Made by a program: the position numbers and the translations under genes. A stretch of DNA of 64,000 nt, taken from assembly GCA_037379345.1 (NCBI GenBank), contig CM074524.1, positions 26,408,750-26,472,749 on the forward strand, read 5' to 3'. Positions 24,768 to 62,726 of the stretch are shown one piece after another (position 1 is the first letter of the stretch; each line of letters starts with the position of its first letter). Source of the stretch: Perna viridis (Eukaryota). Under the pieces are notes generated by a model that was given only the letters and a program-made list of their open reading frames with translations, was not told the DNA's origin and made no database searches.

Positions 24768-24952
24768 GACTTACCCTACCGTTGCTCCCAGTTTTTAGTA
24801 GGGCCTGAGTTTTTCATTTAATTTCATTACTTTGTATGTATTATTTTAGTTACTTTATGTTCTTTATTGTATTTTTTTTCCATGTCTGGTCTTTGTCCTT
24901 GGATTACATTCTTTTGTTTCAGCTAGAATCTTGGTGCCCTTGATTACCCTTC
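24768..24952 (+). mobile_element. Family A PLE 3' UTR copy (partial)
   Basis: cttaccctacc...gctcccagtttttagt...ttggtgcccttgattaccctt matches the family 3' end. Confidence 0.7.
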
Positions 24953-29100: not shown

Positions 29101-29934
29101 ATAGATGTTGGTATTTTGTTTGTTTATTGACCTTCTTTCAATTCTAGTATGTATAATGCCATAAGTAATTTTATCTGTGTAGTGGTGATAACTTTAAAAC
29201 CTTTTTATGAGGTGCAGGTCTGTTAATGTGTATATTTAACATATTCTGCTAATGGAAGGCTCATCAAACATAATAAAACTACATGTTTTAATCCATTTTT
29301 AACAATGTGTGTGTATTGTATGGCTTAATAGATTCACTGGTAGGGGAATTGATAAGTGGTTTTTGTTTGTTTAAGGTGATATTTACACATGTATGTCAAT
29401 ATTTTTTTTATATATCAACCATACTGAAAACATGGTTGATCATGAAAATAGTTATTGCATGTACATGTAGAAAGCAATGTGGCTGTTAGCACTTTGTTTA
29501 ATTGTTCTTGGTTTAACCCCCTGCTTGAAAAACTAGATGCATATTTTTTGGAGGTGCTATCTCCTCTGAACTTAGATTTTATAAAATTTTGATGATTAGA
29601 GGTCTGCATACAAGCATATGCAAGTTAAGTTTTGTATATTGAATCTTTCTGAAACTGACAGATTTGATTTTTGTGCACCCAATTAAAAAAAAACATGATT
29701 TATTCTGTTAGAACCTGAAATACATTGTATGACAACAGTATACAGAAAGAGAAATGATTTGAACATCATGAAGTGTTGTACAGTAGATGGGGAGATTTTT
29801 CACTCTTACACAATCATTTCTGAGGTATTTGTGTTGTTTTTTTTTAATATGGGTGCACAAAAATGAAAGTTGTCAATTGTCTCTATTGTTTAGACAAATA
29901 AACCAACAATATAGGCTTTGAGTCTTGGTGTATA

Positions 29935-30210
29935 ATTTTCCTTTCCTCTTTTGTTTACCATGGACTTGACTTTCTATGAGCAACTGGGCAGGTGTTTCTA
30001 GAAAACACAGAGGATGCTTACCCTACCAATGCACATGGTCCATGCCCCCCAGTTTTTAGTTGTTCATTTACTTTTGTTCATTTGTATAAATTATTTTGGT
30101 TAGTTTATGTTTTTTCGTTGTTGTGTGTGTCATGTTTTCCCTGTCTGCTTTTTGTCCCTGGATTACACTCAATGATTTCCACCAGAATATTGGTTCCCTT
30201 GGTATAACTC
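29935..30210 (+). mobile_element. Family A PLE 3' UTR copy
   Basis: Matches the entire 3' UTR of 1588-1870 in the opposite orientation. Confidence 0.8.
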
Positions 30211-30651
30211 ATTGATTGAGTGAACAATACAGATTTCAGACATGTTTTCAGGATTATTGTCCTAAGAACTTCACATCTCTAGGTGACCATTAGACATTAG
30301 CAGATTCTACAAACTATTTGGTGTATCAAATATTCCTTCATCAACTCACTTCATGTTTGTAGTTTTCATTTAATGACACAGGATCAATATGTGATTGCAT
30401 GGATGTTATTTGAGATTATGTTTATGGTAGCAAATATAATTGAAGGATTTGTCAATCATGGTTCATTTAGATCTTGTATGGTTTTATGGTTGTTTACATC
30501 AATTTTATTACTTTGACTACCATAAACAGCATGTTGTATTCATTTTATGTCACTAGATGTTGTTATGCATTTATGGGAGATCCTTGCTTTAAGGGATCTA
30601 CCATTAAATTCTATGAGGGAGACTAGAATCATAGATTTAATTTGTTTCCTT

Positions 30652-35366: not shown

Positions 35367-35835
35367 TTATGCTAGTGCTTGCTGTAACTACATGTACACA
35401 GGCTTTTTGTACCACATAAGACATCTTTCAATAAAGCTTCTGGAACAAAGTTATTTTGCTACAAATTTGATTTTATGGTCGTCATCATGAACTCGTGTAT
35501 TGTTACAGTGTATCCATCTGCACCATGAGAACTGATTTATTCAACTTGCCATAGTTTTCCTTTCCTCTTTTGTCTTTTCTGGTCTTGACTTTATATGAAC
35601 AACTTGTTGATTGTTTCTAGAAAAGCAGAGGACACTTACCCTACTGGTGTACCTGGTCAATTCTCCCAGATTTCAGTGGAGTCTGAGTTGCTCTTATACT
35701 TTGTGGTGCTTTGTATGTAGTGTTTTGGTTGTTTTATGTTCTTTGTTGTGTGTGTCTGTTCTCCATGTCTGGTTTTTGACCTTGAATTGCATTCTTTAGA
35801 TATCTGCTAAATCATGTTCCCATTGATTACTCTTA
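35367..35835 (+). mobile_element. Family A PLE copy: RT tail plus 3' UTR
   Basis: Decayed match to the RT end (aagcttctggaacaa...catgaactcgtg...actgatttattcaac...atag) followed by the family 3' UTR. Confidence 0.8.
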
Positions 35836-35869
35836 CAGAAAACAGTTACAGGATTTCTGTTGAATGACA

Positions 35870-38215
35870 GTTTATGAGTTGTTTGACAAAATGTTTTTTT
35901 ATGGTTTAAATCTACATACCGAGCCATTTATGTATTACTGTGTACCCATTGGCCTAGAACATTTATATTCATCTTATGATGAACTCCTTCGACTATTGTA
36001 TTATATGTTGCACTCACTAGTCTCTGAATAGTGTTCCTGCTTTGATGTTTGTTTAATAGTTTAACCCAGTTGTGACAAATGGGCATTATATAATGTTCTT
36101 TGAGATAAGACAGTGAATAACAAGAATACTGTAAATTAAATTAATTTGATTTTTTGCTGATATAAAAAATGATTTACTGCATTTTTTTTTCTACCTTGTT
36201 AGAAATGTTTTATGCATCATTAATCATATGATCATAGTTATGCATCATTAAAGTTTTATTTTAGTTTATTGGTAGCAATGAATGGAGATTATATTTCTAG
36301 ATTTTTTAAAAATTTTTTTTTTGCATTGAACCTTTTATACAAGTTTACAAGTGTTTAAAGTTTTATTTGGTGACTATTTTGTGTAAAATGAGTACACATT
36401 GAAATGCTGCCAAGAATGTGTCACTCACTCACTACCTTTATCATACTATATTGATTTCAACTTTGAGGTGAAGGTTAATAACAAAATAAAGTCTAGGCAA
36501 AAGTAAATGGCAAAAGTAATAAAAGAAAGTCCATATAACAATTGACAATATCAGGGCAAAAACGTTCAAGTCGGAATTAACCACAATAGTTCTGGCATGG
36601 TACAGACATTTCTGGTTTCATAGCATTATATTACCATATTACCCAAACCTTGAATATCAATTCCATTTCCATGAATTGTTTCTGGTTTATTGCAAAACAT
36701 AAAGTTTCCACTGTGAAGTGTTAACATGTGTGGTCAAAACAGTACAGACAAATTATTTATGACAGTTTGAAAATCTATTGTTTTTTAAAAAAGTTGTCAA
36801 TTGGATATGGGTATCATTTCAAAAGTAGGCCATGTTTGAAACATTCCTTTGGAACAAGACAAGAATGTAAATAGGGTATTGCTATTTCACCACATAGACT
36901 GTTTTTGTTAATTACTGAATAATTACATGATAAATTATATGTTCCTTTATTAATCATTACTTGATTGCTATTATATAAAGCAGTTTTCTTAAATGACTGT
37001 TCTAGAGTTGTTTACCTAAATGTTTTTTTTTTTAAATTAAATCTACATATTCCATAACAAGCCATTTATATATTATTTTGTACCTACTGGCCTAGAACAT
37101 TTACATTCTTCTTATGATGCAAGGGTGGGGAATATCCACTGAAATGAACCAAATAATGATATGAAATCATATGACTTTATTGTCTAGTATGATGCACTCA
37201 CTAGTCTCTTAATAGTGCTCCTGCTTTGATGATAATTTAATAGTTTAACCAAGTTATGACAAATGTGCATTATAAATGAGAGAAAATGCAATCAGTTTTA
37301 GCTAAAGATCTGTATAAAGTACTGTAAATCTAATTATTTGGATTTTTTTACTGATATTAAAAATGATTTACTGCATTTTTCTAACGTCTTAGGAATGTTT
37401 CATACATCATTAATTGTTTGGTCAAACTTATGCATCGTTAAAGTTTTATTTTATTTTATTGGTGGTAATGAGTTTTGATTATCTTTATAAATGTTTTTTA
37501 TTGCCTTGTAGCATTCTATACAAACATTTACAAGTGTTTAAAGTTTTATTTGGTGACTAGTTTGTGTAAAAAGAAATGTTTTTTTCCTTCCTGTTTTTTT
37601 TTCTTTTGAAACTTTTTAAAGCTATTTTATTTTAATTTAAGAAAGATGAATAAGTGTACATATTTAAATGCTGTCAAGAGTGTGTCACTTACCGGTACTC
37701 ACTACCTTTTCATACTATATTGATTTCAACTTTGGTGTGAAGGTTAATATTAAGATAAAGCCTAGGCAAAAGTAAATGGCAAAAGTAATAAAAGAAAGTC
37801 CATATAACAATTGACGATATCAGGGCAAAAACCAGAAAGTCAGAAACAACCACAATGGTCCTGGCTTCGTGCAAAAATTTCTGATGGAAAGCATTGGGGA
37901 ATCCAGGTTTTATAGCATTATTAGGTAGACCTTCAATCCCAATTCAATTGCTGTTAATTGTTTCTGGTTTATTGCAAAACATAAAGTCTCCACCAGGAAG
38001 TGTTAACATGTGTAGTCAAAACAGTACAGATTTTTTGATATTTTGAAAATATGATTTTTTGTTAGTTCTCAGTTGGATATGGATATCATTTCAAAAGTAG
38101 GCCATGTTTAAAACATTCCTTGGGAACAAGAAAGGAATGTAAATATTACACCACTGAGACAGTTATTGTTAATTAGTATATAATTATATGAGAAATTATA
38201 TGTTCCAGTATTTAG
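35870..38215. repeat. Diverged ~1.15 kb tandem duplication in intron 2
   Basis: About 35870-36960 aligns colinearly with about 37005-38215 (shared blocks such as ctaggcaaaagtaaatggcaaaagtaataaaagaaagtccatataacaattgac). Confidence 0.9.
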
Positions 38216-38904
38216 CATCCTCCAAAGAGGATTTGAGAAGTAATGTTGCTTGTGGTTTTCAATGAATTATACAATAAACACCTGGGTCATAAACTTAGTC
38301 ATGTGACATGGTTATACTACAAAATTGCCCAAGGCTATTTTTTTGTCAAAAATACTGGTGTGTTCTACTTGGTTTCAATTTGGTATAAAGTGTTGGTCAT
38401 GTGCAATATGTCCTTTGGTCAAGTACACCTGATACATGATAATAAGTTTTAAGGAGTAATGGATAAATTAGGTGGTGTTCAGAGGGTGTTGATTTTGATA
38501 AATATGATTTTTAGTTTTTTGTGTTGACTCTTTGAAGTCCTGTATTTGATTTATCAACAGTTCCTCCAATGTATGTATGCTTTTGATATTTCCTCTTTTT
38601 CATAGTGTGTGTTTCCGGCATATAATATGTTAAGATTATTTCTTAAACAGGACCCTAAATTCTACCAAAGTCTATTGTATAAGTCACTAAAATAAGGATA
38701 TTCAAAATGTAGATGAGGATTTCAATGTATCTTGCATGAATACATATAATGCAGCATAGTACATACAGCAAAGGTTCCAAAAAGTGGGTGTTACCTGCAT
38801 ATTGAAAACAGGTTTAGAAGAGAGCATCGAAATTGAGGTCATTGATAGATTTACCATCAAAACAAAAGTGGTACATGAGTACACGATTTAACTGTCTATT
38901 ACAG

Positions 38905-54800: not shown

Positions 54801-56889
54801 TAGAGTTTACATTTCGGATTATCATTTTGTAGTAATACCATTTCCAATGAACGTATTGTTTTACACAATTGTTTTTTTTTTTTTTCTATTTTAGTATATA
54901 GATATCCGTGTGAGTAATGACCTTAGTCTTTTCAAGGTTAAGCAGCTACATGCATACTCATTTGATTACAAATTTGATTACAATCATACTTTTTGAAAAT
55001 TTAGTAGCCATTTTCTTTTGCATGTCACTTTTCCATTTTCTACGTAATCATTTTCACACACTTTTATTATTGATTCCAAAACGCTTGTGATATTTGTCTA
55101 ATACTTTTCGAACAGTCAAATGTTTTTAGTTGGTACATTTGTACATCTAATGCAAAATGACTCCTCTTGGTATTTTTGAACATGAATGAGAAGAAAAATA
55201 AATCAAAACAAAACAAAAGCAAAAGAAAAAAACAACAACAACAACACACACACAAACACAAACACACAAAACGCACAGACAAAAAATCAAAAACCGATGT
55301 CTTCTAAATCGGTAATCGTCAAATTTTCTAAATGGGACGAATGTGATATGCTCTAAGATTGATACGATTACTCTTTCGTAACTTTGATGTTCCGAATGTA
55401 TTCAATCAAAAGAACTGGCTACCAGGAACCAGCTTAAGCAATATGCCAATGGTTATATATATATAGATATTGGGGCCCAAATAATGTATGTGACCTATAT
55501 AGTAAATGGAATTGGACCCCTGTGTGTGAATCAGAAACTGAGTAATATTCATTGTTAACCAATCATATCATCTTTTGCAAGCAAACTGTACTTACCAATT
55601 AAATTTTGTGTAGTTGTTATAAATCCAAAATTGATGGAATGATGTCCTAAGATTGGCTTTTTTTAAATTAATTTCGTAAGTTTGAGCCCAACTATCAGCT
55701 GCTTTAATATGTGGTAGAGGGTTATTTTCTGTACAATCATTCCTCACTTTAATCTTAACCTTAATTAAACTTAACCTTAAATCTCTCAGCGCCAAAAGTA
55801 GCATAAGGTCTCCACGCTGACTGCCCATTCTTTCCTATTCTGTGCTGCTGTTCTTACCATGTTCCAAAATTTCCATCCTTGTTGGTTTCTTTCTTTCTCT
55901 GTTGTTCTTCTCCATGTTGTTGTTGGCCTGCCTCTAGCTTTTTTCCCTTCTGGAGCTCATTGTAGTGCTACATTACTGTCGTTATCCCTTTCACGTCTTA
56001 AAATGTATCCTATCCATGCCCATCTCCCCCTTCTTATTTCACAACTGATGTTTGTGGTTTGTGGGTTTCAACGTTTCACATACAGTAGTACAGGTCTTAC
56101 CAATGATTTATACAATTGAATTTGTGTTCTTTGTCATTTTCTTCTTGCATACCAGATGTTTCGTGGGCGGTGGAATGTCCCTCTTGCTTTCTGTATTCTA
56201 TTTTTCATGTCGCTACCTCCTCCTCCACCTTCTTCCATGACTGCTTCCAGGTAAGTGAACTTGTCCACATCGTCTACTTTCTCATTGTTTTTATTTATCA
56301 GCTCTTTGTTCTTTGTATGCTGTGATCCCAGGGTTTCACATTTTTAGGGTTGAGCTTTAATCAAATTCTTGCAGTTTCTCTTGTTAATATCTGCGTTTTC
56401 TCGTCGAAGTCACTAAATGCAGAGGAAAGAAGTGTAATGTTATCCGCAAAGTCGAGATCTTGTGTTAAAATTCCATCTTAACCCTCTAGCCTTGTCTGCA
56501 GTTGTTCTTCGCATGATCCAGTCTATGACTAGAAGGAAAAGAAAATCTGTCATTACACACCCTTGCTGCACATCTATTTTGATCTCAAACCACTCTGATG
56601 TTTCTCCTTTATCAGTGATAGTACATTTAAATTCTGTATATATTTCTTTTATGGTTCTTGCATGGTATTCCGTAGCTCTTCATGATCTTCCATAGACTTT
56701 CGCGGTGGACTGAGTTAAATGCCTTTTCAAAGTCTATAAAACGTATGCAAAGTGGTGACCTCCATTCATTTGTTTCTACTGATAAATATCTGTTCAGTTG
56801 TTCCTCTCTTTGGTCCAAAACCTGTCTGCTCATTCCTTAATCTTTTGTCGATTCCTTTCTTGACCCATTCTACAGAATACTTTACTAAG

Positions 56890-56969
56890 CTCCTCTTACA
56901 GGTCCGGGTGTCAAAAGAATAGGCTTGCAACAGCGCTAGCCTTGTCATAAAAGGCGACTAAATAGTGCT
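56890..56969 (+). ncRNA. Pseudoknotted 5' head of the SINE (HDV-like candidate lacking P4)
   Basis: CCTCTTA (56892-98) pairs with TAAAAGG (56948-54, one mismatch); AGCGCTA (56932-38) pairs with TAGTGCT (56963-69); GTC/GAC short pairing; CTAAA precedes the last strand. Confidence 0.45.
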
Positions 56970-57366
56970 CAGAAACCTAGCCGGATGCTAGGCGCTCTGT
57001 CCACAGAGCAACTGGGATGTGTGCCCCAGGTGGTGGAATGGGGTACCCCTGGCGTATTACATGCTTGGATTGTCAGGCTATAATACGGAAAACCTGACCG
57101 CGAACCGTAGTGGAGCACCGTGTTGGGAAAGATGCCACGTTCCTCGCGCGTTAAAAAAAACCCTGCTGTGGTGTTCAATAGGAGTAAGAACCTTGGTGCT
57201 CCGCCACAGGAGGTTAAATTGCAAGACCCTACCCATCCCTCCCTTTTATCTTGTAGCAATTAAAATATGTCGACCTTATTATCATTTAATCTTCCCTTTC
57301 ATGTTCATCGTCTGAATATAGCTGAAATATTGCTGCTCGGGCGTTAAACCTCAACAATCAATCAAT
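56890..57366 (+). mobile_element. SINE-like retroposon nested in the RTE, with no tRNA head
   Basis: 9-bp TSD tttactaag (56881-56889 / 57367-57375); GC-rich body; 3' end gctgaaatattgctg...ggcgttaaac...(caat)n resembling mollusc SINE tails. Confidence 0.85.
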
Positions 57367-59054
57367 TTTACTAAGGTAAACACAGGTAAAAGAGTTATTC
57401 CCCTCCAGTTGTTACAATATGTCATATCACCCTTCTTAAAAATCTTGCAAATCATTTATTTTTTAAATATGATGACCACTTTTCTTCTTTCCATCAGTTA
57501 TTAAATATATCGTCATTTTCCCTGCTATTAGGTCTATGTCAGCCTTTATTAGTTCTGGTGTTATGCTATCTATTCCCCCTGACTGGTCAGTTTGTGTCTT
57601 CTTCAAAGCTCTTTTAACCTATGCTAATGTCCACTCCCCTAAATCTATATCATCTATATCCATTTTCAGCTGCTTTTTTCTGCATTTTCAGCCATCCTAT
57701 CGTACCAGCTCCTTTTATCCTCTCGAGCATGTTCCTTAACATCTTTATTTTTCTGGTTGTATTATTCATTTAGTATTACTTTTATTCTCTCAGATCTTGC
57801 ACCTTCTATTTTGCTTTTGATTTCTTTTCTTTATTCAACCCTTTTCCATGTTTCATTTGTGATCCATGGTTTGCTGATCTTTTTCACTTCTGCCCAATAC
57901 TTGCTTAGCTGCCTCATTGTATATCTTGACTGTACTTTCATATTTCAATAATGGGTCTTCTATGTCACTCTCTTCCAGTATTTGGAATCTGTTTCTTACT
58001 CCGATGTTGTACTTTTTCCTTACATTCATACTTTTGAGCTTGTTAAGATCATTTCTTTCGCTTTTGTTTTTGTTCTTGTCACCTTTGTTTCTTAACAGTT
58101 TGATTTTGATCTTTGTTTTTACTAAGTAATGATCACTGTAAAGATCTGCTCCTCTCATTACTGTTGTGTCTAGTATTGATGTCCTCATATCCCCTCTTAC
58201 CATCACATGATCGATCTGGTTTGCAGTTTTTCCATCAGGTTTTCCAAGTTATCTTGTGTATTTCTCTGTGTGGAAATATAGAGCCCGTTATGATGAGGCC
58301 TTTCATTTGGCAGACATTGCGTAATGATTCGCCATTTTCGTTTATCGTCCCACATCCATGTTTTCCTGACACCTCTTGCATGTGACTGTTGTCGTTGCCT
58401 ATTTGTGCGTTTATGTCACCCATAACAATAAACATGTGCCATGTTTATTGGAACATGATACATCATCTTGTAGTTTCTCTTCATTTCTAGCATCATTTGT
58501 TGGTGCCTAAGCTTGTATAACTGTAAACTTCTTATACTTTGAATAGAATCTTGCTTTTATTATTCTCTTATTCAATCAGTGATTTCTTGGCTCTTTCACT
58601 CATCATTATTGCTACTTCACTGACTTGAAGATCTTCTACACGTATCACTGTGTCTCCGCTTTGAAGTTTGTTTTCACCTGACCCCTTCCATCTACTCTCA
58701 CTTATACCTAGTATGTAAATACCATAGTTTTTTTCTTTTTTTGCTACTTGTGTTGCTTTTGCTATGTCTGCCATTGTTCTAAAGTTCCAGCATCCTATGT
58801 ACATATTCCGTTTTGGCGCTACTATGGAACCTATCGGCTTTTGGGCTTCCTTTCTGCTTTCCCCAATGTGTCATATTTGATTCCTCAGCAGTACGCCTAT
58901 GTTGGGTTTCTGCAGCGTTTCTGGTTTCTGAAACAAGTTCTTTTTTACAGATCTGGCGGGTCGGGTTTTCTCTCTGGGTATTCCTTCCGGTAGATGATTT
59001 CATTACCATGCTAACGGATTGCATCTATCAGGGTTTCCGTCTGGGTTGTCTCCC

Positions 59055-59137
59055 ATAGCCTTAGGCTTTTCTAAGCCGCCCATAAAGCAGTGGGGCTATT
59101 TAACCATAGCTGAGGTTTAGTTTGCAGACACCAGGGC
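59055..59137 (-). ncRNA. Candidate HDV-like self-cleaving motif at the RTE 5' end
   Basis: Order on the minus strand: GCCC ... ATAGCC-CCACTGCTTTAT-GGGC-GG-CTT(AGAA)AAG-CCTAA-GGCTAT, i.e. P1, P2, P3/L3, P1', GG, P4, CUAA, P2'; P1 and P3 are shorter than canonical. Confidence 0.4.
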
Positions 59138-59798
59138 ATGTACACTCACTGATAAAAAAAAAACAAACAAAAACAAAAACAAATAAAACAAATAAACAAA
59201 AAATAAACAAACATAATAAACAAAAAAAAAACAAACAGAAAAAAAAAAGAAAAAAAAAGAAAACACACAACAGACACCATAGTATGTGAATACTATAGGT
59301 GGGCTTTTAGTAAAAGTATTAAAGTCTTTAATAGTGATACATCGAAAAAGAAAATCTTAATTATGGAACAAGGGGAGATATGTGCGTACACAGTGTAGTG
59401 ATGTGTTTTGCTCATGGGCATATTCGAATATTGAACTTCTAGCTGCGTAAGTTAAATATTTCTTTGACACATGGATGGCGGAATTCGTCTTGACTAATTC
59501 ATTTATTTTTACAGTTACACTCGGCGCCAAATTGAAAATAAACCGGTTTATTATTCTCATGTTATACTCCTTGAAACATATTTACAGCATATTGAAATTT
59601 TCCATATCTATATGATTGGTATGTTTCAAGTTTGGTACATAAAATCTGAAAAAATGGAAAGTTAGGCGTCGGCTCGCCATGTAAATACATATAATGCTTT
59701 AAATTGTTTCATGTTTCGATCATTTCTTTATATATATTCTATATTGCATCTGTTCTACTGTAACGGGAAAAATGCATGTAAAACATGCTTCAACATGT

Positions 59799-59927
59799 CA
59801 ACTCGGCTGGTGTTTCTAGAAAAGCAGAGGACGCTTACCCTACCGGTGCACCTGATCCATGCTCACAGTTTTTAGTGGAGTCCGAGTTGCTCATTTACTA
59901 TAAACTTGGTTCCCTTGAATACTCTTC
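59799..59927 (+). mobile_element. Family A PLE minimal copy (structured domain joined to 3' terminus)
   Basis: Near-perfect structured motif, an internal deletion, then cttggttcccttgaatactctt. Confidence 0.8.
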
Positions 59928-61871
59928 AATAAATTACAAAACATAGGGTCTTTGACAAAATTGAGTTCTGAGGAACACATAATACAAGTCATGTACACAC
60001 ATTAGATTTTATAATGTACTAACCATTATCTCATTGCTTTATTTTAGTCTTTATTTTTGTCATATACATCAGCTTTTATAATCTCCTTAACATATTTCTA
60101 AATGTTTCCTTTAATTGATTTGAAAGAAAAAAACACTTCAATGAGAGAGAATTAGTTTAATTATTCTGAACGTCTTTTTAAATGCATTAGCATTGTACAT
60201 TATACATTAATAACTACTGAAAGAGCTCTATCAAGTTGTTTGAAAAGCTCAGGGAATATATGTATGTGGATAGTAATGAGATTTTATATTGTAACATATT
60301 TTGGACGGATTATATTTGCAACATTTGTACTTTACCACTTCATTTCTGAGTAAGAGTACTTGAAACCTCAATAATAAAACAACAGAAAATGCTGAAATCA
60401 CAAATAGTTTCCAATAAATTGCAATCGAAAAATAAAACATGTCACAATTTACATAACTTCGTAAAACTAAACAGATTTCCTTTGACTAATAATTTTGAAA
60501 ACATAAATATAAGCAATGTATAAAAATTAGTTCTCTAAATTAAGGATTTGCATTTATTCTTTTGATGCAGAATTATCTATTTCAGTTTTTTCCTTGTAAT
60601 TCCTTAGACAAGGTGACGTTTCTACTCTCGTAGAAATTTAACATTAGAGCCAAAGATAATTTTAAGCAAGGCAGAAAAAGTACGACACTGGACCAATAAA
60701 AGATAATACAGCAAAAGGAATAGATATTTCCACCAAAACGTTAGAATAACGTCTTCCGTTTATATTTTTTGTGTAAGTAATCCTATTTCTCAAGGATGAC
60801 TGACAACAACGAAGAACATATGAGTTGTTTGTTTTGTATATTACGCTTTCGTCAGGTATATTCACAAGAGGTTGTGTGTGTTATTTTTGTATAAATATCC
60901 TTAAAAAAAATACATGTATTTTTCCTTTCCCTTTTTGTTTTTGTTGTGCAATTTGTTACTAAAAGTAACAACTTTTTTCTTTTTTTTATTTTGGTTCAAG
61001 CAAGTAATATATTTTCAAAGAAAACAGACTAGAAAATATGTTGTCCTAGAAAGGTTCATGAAACTACTTTCTTGCTCTCCATAAGTATGATCAAACACAT
61101 TTATTTTTCACTTTGCAATGAAGAAATTTGGCTCATGGACTAAAGCTCATAAGCATGATAATCGCGTTACTATTTTAAAATTTTGAATACTCTTCAATTT
61201 TAGAGATACTTAATCAAATGATGTCATGCAGATCATATACTGTAATTTGATGGAAACAATATGTTTCAGAGTGAAAACCGTTGTGATGAAGAGATTTTCT
61301 AAAATTTGCTGTTATTAAGAATGCAAATAAAATCTAAATCTCACTGTGACATAACTAACTACTTGCTGTTCTAATTGTAACGGATGTGCATCAGAATAGA
61401 AACTTTTCAACAATAGCTCACTTAATTAACAATATCTAATTACAAGGAAAAGCACACCAATAGCTTTTAGAAAAAAAATAAAAAATACAAACATGCGGGA
61501 ATAGTTCTACTAACGAACTAATCATTTAAGAGGAATTACTGACTTCTTTAGACTTCATTTCACTTCATTCGACAGAGTGACTTGTATAAGAAAATACAAC
61601 AAAAACACAATGTCTTTGTATCACCAACCCATTGTTTACTCGAATATCAACTGTTTTTTTCATTATGTGATTATTAATAAGTTAATAATAATAATATATA
61701 TATCAATCTATCTTGCATCGATTCATCATGAACATATGACATTCAGTTCAGAGTCTGTCATAACGATGATAATGCAGTAGTCTTAACTAACACTTAATAC
61801 AACGAACCTACAAATAGAAAAATCAGATACCTATACATTAAAATGCAAACTTCATATACATATGTATGGGT

Positions 61872-62104
61872 GCAACTCGGCGGGTGTTTCAAGAAAAGCA
61901 GAGGACGCTTACCCTACCGGTGCACCTGGTCCATGCTCCCAGTTTTTAGTGGAGTCCGAGTTGCTCATTTGATTTTGATACTTTGTATGTATGATTTAAG
62001 TTACTTTATTTTCTTTGTTGTGTATGTTTTCCATGTCTGGTCTTTGTCTCTGGATTGCATTCTTTTGATTACCGCTATAACCTTGGTTCCATTGATTACT
62101 CTTT
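61872..62104 (+). mobile_element. Family A PLE 3' UTR copy
   Basis: High similarity to 1588-1827; explains ORF 61843..62106. Confidence 0.85.
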
Positions 62105-62114
62105 GACAAAATGA

Positions 62115-62250
62115 TTGACCCATTTATACAAACAAAATTTCTGTTGTTTTGTTTCTAAACAATTTTGTCATGAATATATATATTGACCAATTTATACAAA
62201 CAAAATTTCTGTTGTTTTGTTTCTATACAATTTTGTCATGAATATATATA
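62115..62250. repeat. 68-bp tandem duplication ending in (TA)n
   Basis: Units start at 62115 and 62183. Confidence 0.9.
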
Positions 62251-62260
62251 TATATATATA

Positions 62261-62726
62261 GAAGGGGCTGAAAAATTCGATGTTAGAACTGTCAAATTTG
62301 CGAAGGAAATTTTTGTCGTTCCCTTCGCGGGACTCGAACTCGTACCGCTGTGACATCTTTGGCAACACCGCCTGCGCTAAGTCCAGCGCCCTAGACCACT
62401 CGGCCAGCTAGGCTATATAAAAATATAGCTTTCACTGGCCGGGTGATTCCTCCTCGTAGGATTAATCTAGGGCTGTAAATTAGTACACGATGTATGGTAG
62501 TACGGGACAGTTCATCTAGGTGTTATTATGTAGGATAGAGGATCAAATTAATGATGCATGTCACAACAGATCAATATTATACAACGTCTCATAATGTGAC
62601 GACTCTATTCACTACACTGCTCCATCGGATCAAATTGATACAGGGAAGTTAAAAATATAGCTTTCGCTGGCCGGGTGATTCCTCCTATAGCAGTGTAATG
62701 AATAGAGTCGTCACATTCTGAGACGT

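Follow-up and report, generated by a model that had tools for sequence, protein, structure and literature searches.

How can a SINE that carries no RNA polymerase III (Pol III) promoter give rise to an RNA with a defined 5' end? The question is raised by an insertion at positions 56890..57366 (forward strand) of a 64,000-nucleotide stretch of the Perna viridis genome (assembly GCA_037379345.1, contig CM074524.1), hereafter the window. LP-SINEs, which have a 70-bp head common to Nimb-17_LMi, I-3_DR and RTE-9_CPB and in one case a partial Nin-DC body (Matetovici et al. 2016, PMC4758252), do not follow the general pattern in which Pol III genes serve as SINE heads. Their mode of transcription was left open in 2016 in the sections of that paper covered here.

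The insertion and its host element

The insertion is flanked by a 9-bp target-site duplication (TSD), TTTACTAAG, whose left and right copies occupy 56881..56889 and 57367..57375 of the forward strand. A first-pass annotation of the window had delimited the element by this duplication, and the empty site bears it out: a single copy of the 9-mer stands in L658, a paralogous copy of the LINE that hosts the SINE, relative to which the window carries 5 additional bases immediately beyond the second (right-hand) TSD. The sequence likewise joins across the element in a contig of run X18. The host is a decayed RTE-type LINE on the reverse strand (55757..59147), within which the SINE lies in the opposite orientation. 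It retains a weak RVT_1 match (E 7e-4), and its 5'-UTR block at 59096-59112 resembles an RTE block quoted in the part of PMC5786205 consulted. Host-LINE paralogs without the SINE insertion, with 79-91% identity, are located at 47.72 Mb of C2 and 4.56 Mb of C8 in genome G000.

Family membership and completeness of the 5' end

On sequence criteria, the element is an LP-SINE, composed of a LINE-derived head, a Nin-like body and a (CAAT)n tail. The head, of about 80 bases, forms the 5' terminus, and the whole is enclosed by TSDs and ends in tandem repeats, as in that class. Homology of the head to the 5' 70 bp of Nimb-17_LMi was recognized by eye through the published Chlamys block and Pan_3, from the portions of the source at hand, and not through Nimb-17 itself. 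The Chlamys "Nimb-17 homology" block holds the C run, TGCAGGT, GGGTGT, AAGAAT, CCTGC and the core in the same order as the family. The SINE-type body that had been annotated corresponds to a Nin-DC/Deu-like central domain (57086..57220, forward strand), matched by eye between family copies and Lottia_Nin in the consulted part of the PMC4758252 supplement. A LINE-type tail with a predicted 7-bp stem-loop follows on the same strand (57300..57349; AATATA hexamer at 57315-20), and then a C-rich spacer with the (CAAT)n tail, which is present as first described (57350..57366). To the extent that the cited sections describe them, the element thus resembles the LP SINEs and pectinoid MESC SINEs of molluscs in its LINE-derived head of about 70-80 nt, its TSDs and its lack of Pol III boxes; Sgl_LP in its partial Nin-DC body; and LP SINEs in the AATATA hexamer before the repeats (PMC4758252). 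It shares a central domain and a LINE-type tail with short tandem repeats with the Deu/Nin-domain SINEs of bivalves, but those surveyed in the part of PMC11481361 consulted have tRNA heads.

The window element is an old, worn copy (87% identity to a young copy) within an abundant SINE family. More than 13,000 copies are present (13,574 tails in a genome count by exact pattern), and 7,307 genome heads match the exact family start CCCCGTGCAGGTCCGGG; the genome search yielded 6,351 candidates, of which 40 were scored. A CCCCGTG-type start is found in 28 of the 29 other aligned loci (four of the 29 being one duplicated insertion), and the remaining locus is cut 8 nt in. When copies were anchored by their tails, 21 of 30 began at family positions 1-4, nine were shorter and none extended further 5' into a longer tRNA, 5S or U-RNA version, in a sample that includes two small duplicate groups. 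Since the 5' ends stack and no copy is longer, the head is complete and the element is not a truncated tRNA SINE. The reported absence of A and B boxes also holds: the first 150 nt contain nothing within 1 mismatch of an A box, and B-box-like matches with 1 mismatch are confined to element positions 250-461. The head has no match in Rfam 15 at an E value of 10 or below.

Among 50 reverse transcriptase (RT) loci, none ends in the SINE tail or begins with the SINE head, as a partner LINE would. An RNase H LINE family was considered for this role and not accepted, its tail being only weakly similar (29/2,000 shuffles). No LINE protein remains were detected by tblastn behind the metagenome heads described below. 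Where divergent heads were sought in G000, the loci examined were SINE variants or fragments, and one further search returned none. A tandem array in the same genome (C15:5.527-5.573 Mb; L586 and L587) is built from 2-3.6-kb units, each made of a head fragment, some 90 unrelated bases that we take to be LINE-ORF-like, and a SINE copy. The 5' bases in this array resemble the odd start of the window copy.

A predicted pseudoknot at the 5' terminus

The structure predicted for the head is an H-type pseudoknot at the 5' terminus, then a stem and a core hairpin. On the forward strand of the window, the pseudoknot spans 56893..56928 and comprises S1 (56893-96 with 56905-08), S2 (56898-904 with 56922-28) and loop L3 (56909-21), which has a conserved AGAAT block at its end. 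The second domain (56932..56969) would consist of stem P3 (56932-37 with 56964-69), a 4x4 internal loop and an 18-nt core hairpin (56944-56961). Upstream of the core, the motif generally opens with S1 (3-5 bp) and one U, continues with S2 (7 bp) and the partner strand of S1, and closes with a loop that ends in AGAAT before the partner strand of S2. In the window copy, bases peculiar to it replace the family start (G)CCCCGTG at 56890..56898 and break S1 and the first S2 pair. Two G-to-A changes had been proposed to weaken this copy; the one at 56947, within the core hairpin, is a true lesion, but at 56951 most heads have A (149 of 182, although the sample was enriched for G). The predicted fold is damaged in this particular copy, which is probably inactive.

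Support for the pseudoknot comes mainly from S2. Over 19 representatives of repeat families and viruses, picked after the fold had been seen, S2 pairs in 113 of 133 cells, against a permuted mean of 79.1 and a maximum of 103 in 20,000 permutations; the anchors were independent of S2, and three mis-anchored rows were retained. In the viral rows (n = 6), 98.9% of cells pair and all seven S2 pairs are changed on both sides (0/500 shuffles). In eight non-viral rows, namely the window copy and 7 of the 12 other representatives after exclusion of irregular or long-loop rows, 92.9% pair and four of the seven S2 pairs show two-sided change. Within the genome, A10G co-occurs with T36C (5/12 versus 2/163, p 1.2e-5), to which subfamily linkage may contribute. 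S1 varies little among copies, P3 covariation is weak (reached by 111 of 5,000 permutations), and the core hairpin is without covariation, its invariance arising by construction since the core served as the search word. Of the family's own copies, 59 of 78 pass a pseudoknot descriptor, as do 45 of 96 from metagenomes and all six distinct viral matches with the AGAAT anchor, over a background of 7/120 prokaryote chance matches and 50/933 shuffles. The low metagenome pass rate is due in part to decay and to long inserts in L3. A conserved pseudoknot, as in viral xrRNAs, is thus predicted from S2 covariation and the descriptor together.

The motif in metagenomes and viruses

The 18-nt core was found in at least 122 stretches of metagenome contigs and in nine viral contigs, seven of which hold the whole motif. 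A model built from eight non-viral heads recovers these seven viral contigs with 31-61 bits, and 26 further loci score 22 bits or less. Six are short RNA-virus contigs with five distinct motifs: two are near-identical and carry Peptidase A21 matches, a capsid of RNA-virus type, three carry RdRP matches, and one (L241) has no Pfam match. Each of the six carries the motif in sense, 7-102 nt downstream of the last long ORF and within 27-119 nt of the contig end, and in L241 a tandem second copy is cut by the contig end. Location after the last ORF in the viral 3' UTR and tandem copying are both features of xrRNAs. Because the motif stands in sense in RNA-virus 3' UTRs and S2 covaries, it probably acts as RNA, at least in RNA viruses.

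A full motif also lies between genes of a 212-kb DNA virus contig (L243:2955-3030), with a gene for an NAD-dependent ligase upstream of it and a long ORF about 140 nt further on. Contigs L245 and L249 have the 18-mer without the knot (24 bits) and were treated as chance. Loose-pattern matches in viral contigs (2 of 95 passing the descriptor) and prokaryote contigs (7 of 120) were likewise set aside as mostly chance, by comparison with 50/933 shuffles. Four additional viral scans returned no new virus with the motif, and the viral loci have no match in Rfam 15. The head is tandemly duplicated in a metagenome repeat (L154:1370-1521), in a SINE copy (L532) and in the viral 3' UTR of L241. Four metagenome SINE-like families (L216, L182, L172 and L159) have L3 inserts of 55-140 nt and keep both the S2 complementarity and the 5' boundary. 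Another family (L204, L186, L178 and L199) has a tRNA-like stretch behind the head and, judged by eye, resembles the scallop MESC SINEs in this respect.

The 5' junctions

A G precedes the C run in 72 of 100 full-length copies. Among 76 copies with an exact TSD, 37 have one G not supplied by the target; the G is ambiguous in 7, a single base other than G is added in 7, two to six bases are added in 16, none is added in 7, and 2 overlap. GG is carried by 2 of the 76, and a cap-derived G is indistinguishable in these counts from a templated G at +1. In 60 of the 76, the end of the TSD and the C run are no more than 1 nt apart. Three metagenome families start at A or G, at an equal distance from the loop-1 U, and the repeat families hold the 5' boundary R-CCCCGTG while L3 spans 8 to about 136 nt. 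As the boundary is constant despite the variable L3, the 5' end is set locally, a behavior that trimming to a structure, cleavage and a local initiator fit equally well.

Routes to a defined RNA end

Our tentative preference, based on a predicted structure and on comparison with viral systems, is that the head fold acts as a block to a 5'-to-3' exonuclease that trims read-through transcripts. Sense copies in introns or behind poly(A) sites would supply the RNA, in which the 80-base LINE-derived head would fold in cells into the terminal pseudoknot and stem-loop. XRN1 or XRN2 would stall about 2 nt before S1, so that host Pol II read-through RNA would be trimmed back to the first base of the element, and a LINE reverse transcriptase might then prime on the tail. 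We favor this exonuclease block because it fits both the first base of a retroelement and a viral 3' UTR with tandem copies. The S2 covariation, the viral 3'-UTR sites and the constancy of the 5' boundary despite L3 length all speak for it. On the other side, the fold is without a three-way junction, neither the heads nor the viral loci match Rfam 15, P3 covaries weakly and fewer than half of the metagenome copies pass the descriptor (45/96). Furthermore, the purine at +1 (G in 72/100 copies; A or G in the three metagenome families) is what a transcription start would predict. Nor are simple H-type pseudoknots known to stop XRN1 in general.

Like viral xrRNAs, the motif is a compact pseudoknot in the 3' UTR after the last ORF of unrelated viruses, sometimes in tandem; unlike them, it has another sequence and secondary structure, with a 5'-terminal H-type knot and a separate stem-loop (PMC8374639, in part). 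It matches no described xrRNA class in Rfam 15 and differs from the folds given in the portion of PMC8374639 consulted. The LP head, known here from its sequence and predicted fold, also differs in that it caps retroelements as well. It is quite conceivable, and in our judgment slightly more so than the exonuclease block taken by itself, that the LP head represents an undescribed class of exonuclease-resistant (or self-cleaving) RNA, mobile among LINEs of several clades, SINEs, unrelated RNA viruses and a large DNA virus, which would provide a promoterless, defined RNA from read-through transcription. The earlier suggestion of promoter-free SINE RNA from read-through transcripts is still plausible in this form, but the specific HDV-like pseudoknot tied to it is unsupported. 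If true, blocking an exonuclease would be a way of making a retroelement 5' end for which we found no description, and the head would be a new xrRNA class outside viruses.

The SINE type is already known, and the predicted fold and the virus link appear to be new, as neither was found in the open-access literature searched. The word pseudoknot has no occurrence, and viruses are not linked to the head, in the main text of PMC4758252 as far as it was available, and the head structure is not described in the parts of PMC5786205 or PMC11481361 consulted. A covariation-supported fold common to RNA-virus 3' UTRs makes LP-SINE transcription testable on an 80-nt RNA.

An internal Pol II promoter, the published proposal for LP heads, here combined with a second role for the fold, for example in stability, translation or protein binding, seems to us rather unlikely, although it is the strongest rival. 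It accommodates the purine at +1 and the single G not explained by the target in 37 of 76 TSD-bounded copies, but the A at +1 in one family is not a copy of the cap. Downstream promoter elements have fixed spacing, and the distance from the 5' end to the core, which ranges from about 44 to 180 nt, is unlike theirs. Moreover, the covariation and the occurrence in RNA viruses, where a DNA promoter is of no use, require a role as RNA. LINE 5' UTRs are indeed the source of the head, which in Saccostrea stands in place of a tRNA head, and the 77-bp end of a trypanosome LINE serves as promoter and ribozyme alike; in the sections of PMC4758252 covered here, the promoter role of the LP head is itself a proposal and a ribozyme is raised by analogy only.

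Less probable again, and unlikely on the whole, is that the head cleaves itself at its 5' edge as a ribozyme of an undescribed class. The 18-nt core is found again in animal repeats and in viruses, and its UGUCGU and ACUAA blocks are, to our eyes, reminiscent of HDV L3 and J4/2. The head stands where HDV-like ribozymes stand in R2, L1Tc and RTE (PMC6765202, in part), and the UTRs of linear RNA viruses, occasionally 3' UTRs, do hold ribozymes according to the part of PMC13725137 consulted. However, cleavage would remove the 3' terminus of the viral RNAs, all six contigs run through the site, and no Rfam ribozyme matches. The remaining probability falls to RNA roles of other kinds, for instance translation enhancement or protein binding.

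The first-pass annotation had drawn the head as an HDV-like ribozyme without P4, a reading that is now hardly credible. Its helix and joiner strings exist (AGCGCTA at 56932-38, TAGTGCT at 56963-69 and CTAAA at 56958-62), and the 5' bases do pair with 56948-54 (CCTCTTA, 6 of 7 pairs), but these bases are peculiar to the window copy and the match is not borne out as meaningful. The start CCTCTTACAGGTCCGGG occurs once in the genome, in the window copy itself, against 7,307 heads with the family start (a looser pattern adds 11 copies, one tandem array), and 23.5% of random 9-mers from the window pair equally well somewhere in the head. When eight heads are aligned, 60.7% of the proposed P1 is paired, none of its pairs covaries, and the three central ones are broken in 7, 5 and 7 of the 8 rows. 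The gap between P2 and the 3' strand of this P1 is 9 nt, which leaves no room for P3-L3-P3; a P3/L3 of HDV type is absent from the head, and an HDV-type L3 motif was not found. A descriptor of the nested double pseudoknot gave no folds in the window head or in a young copy, but found the fold in a LINE head of the same genome (L727). For a J4/2-like CNAA before the P2 3' strand, CTAA is a candidate, but its C is predicted to be paired in the core hairpin, and the core was itself the search word. A pseudoknot in place of a Pol III promoter survives as a candidate, but the pairing first proposed for it does not.

HDV-like ribozymes of R2/SIDE, L1Tc, RTE and Baggins are, like the LP head, 5'-terminal structured modules on non-LTR elements, and allow release of these elements from co-transcripts (PMC6765202, sections covered here). 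The LP head differs from them in having no nested double pseudoknot, no P3/L3 and, across the family, no conserved 7-bp P1 at the 5' end. A 5'-truncated tRNA, 5S or U-RNA SINE is as improbable as the HDV-like reading first drawn: related Nin-domain SINEs have tRNA heads (PMC4758252, in part), but no tail-anchored copy reaches beyond the shared start and in most copies the TSD ends at or next to the C run.

A young 6-kb LINE family of the same genome, 98-99% identical among copies (L727:2750-8830; also L636 and L728-L731), encodes endonuclease, RT and RNase H domains in an ORF of 1247 aa. It begins with the HDV-like nested double pseudoknot, its head has no Rfam match, and it ends in (CAAT)n with a stem-loop tail weakly like that of the SINE. 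The presence of an HDV-like fold at the same terminal position in a young LINE suggests that 5'-end-processing modules occupy this slot. A separate dispersed repeat family has copies in the window at 629-2064, 24783-24951, 29932-30215, 35550-38218 and 59799-62508.
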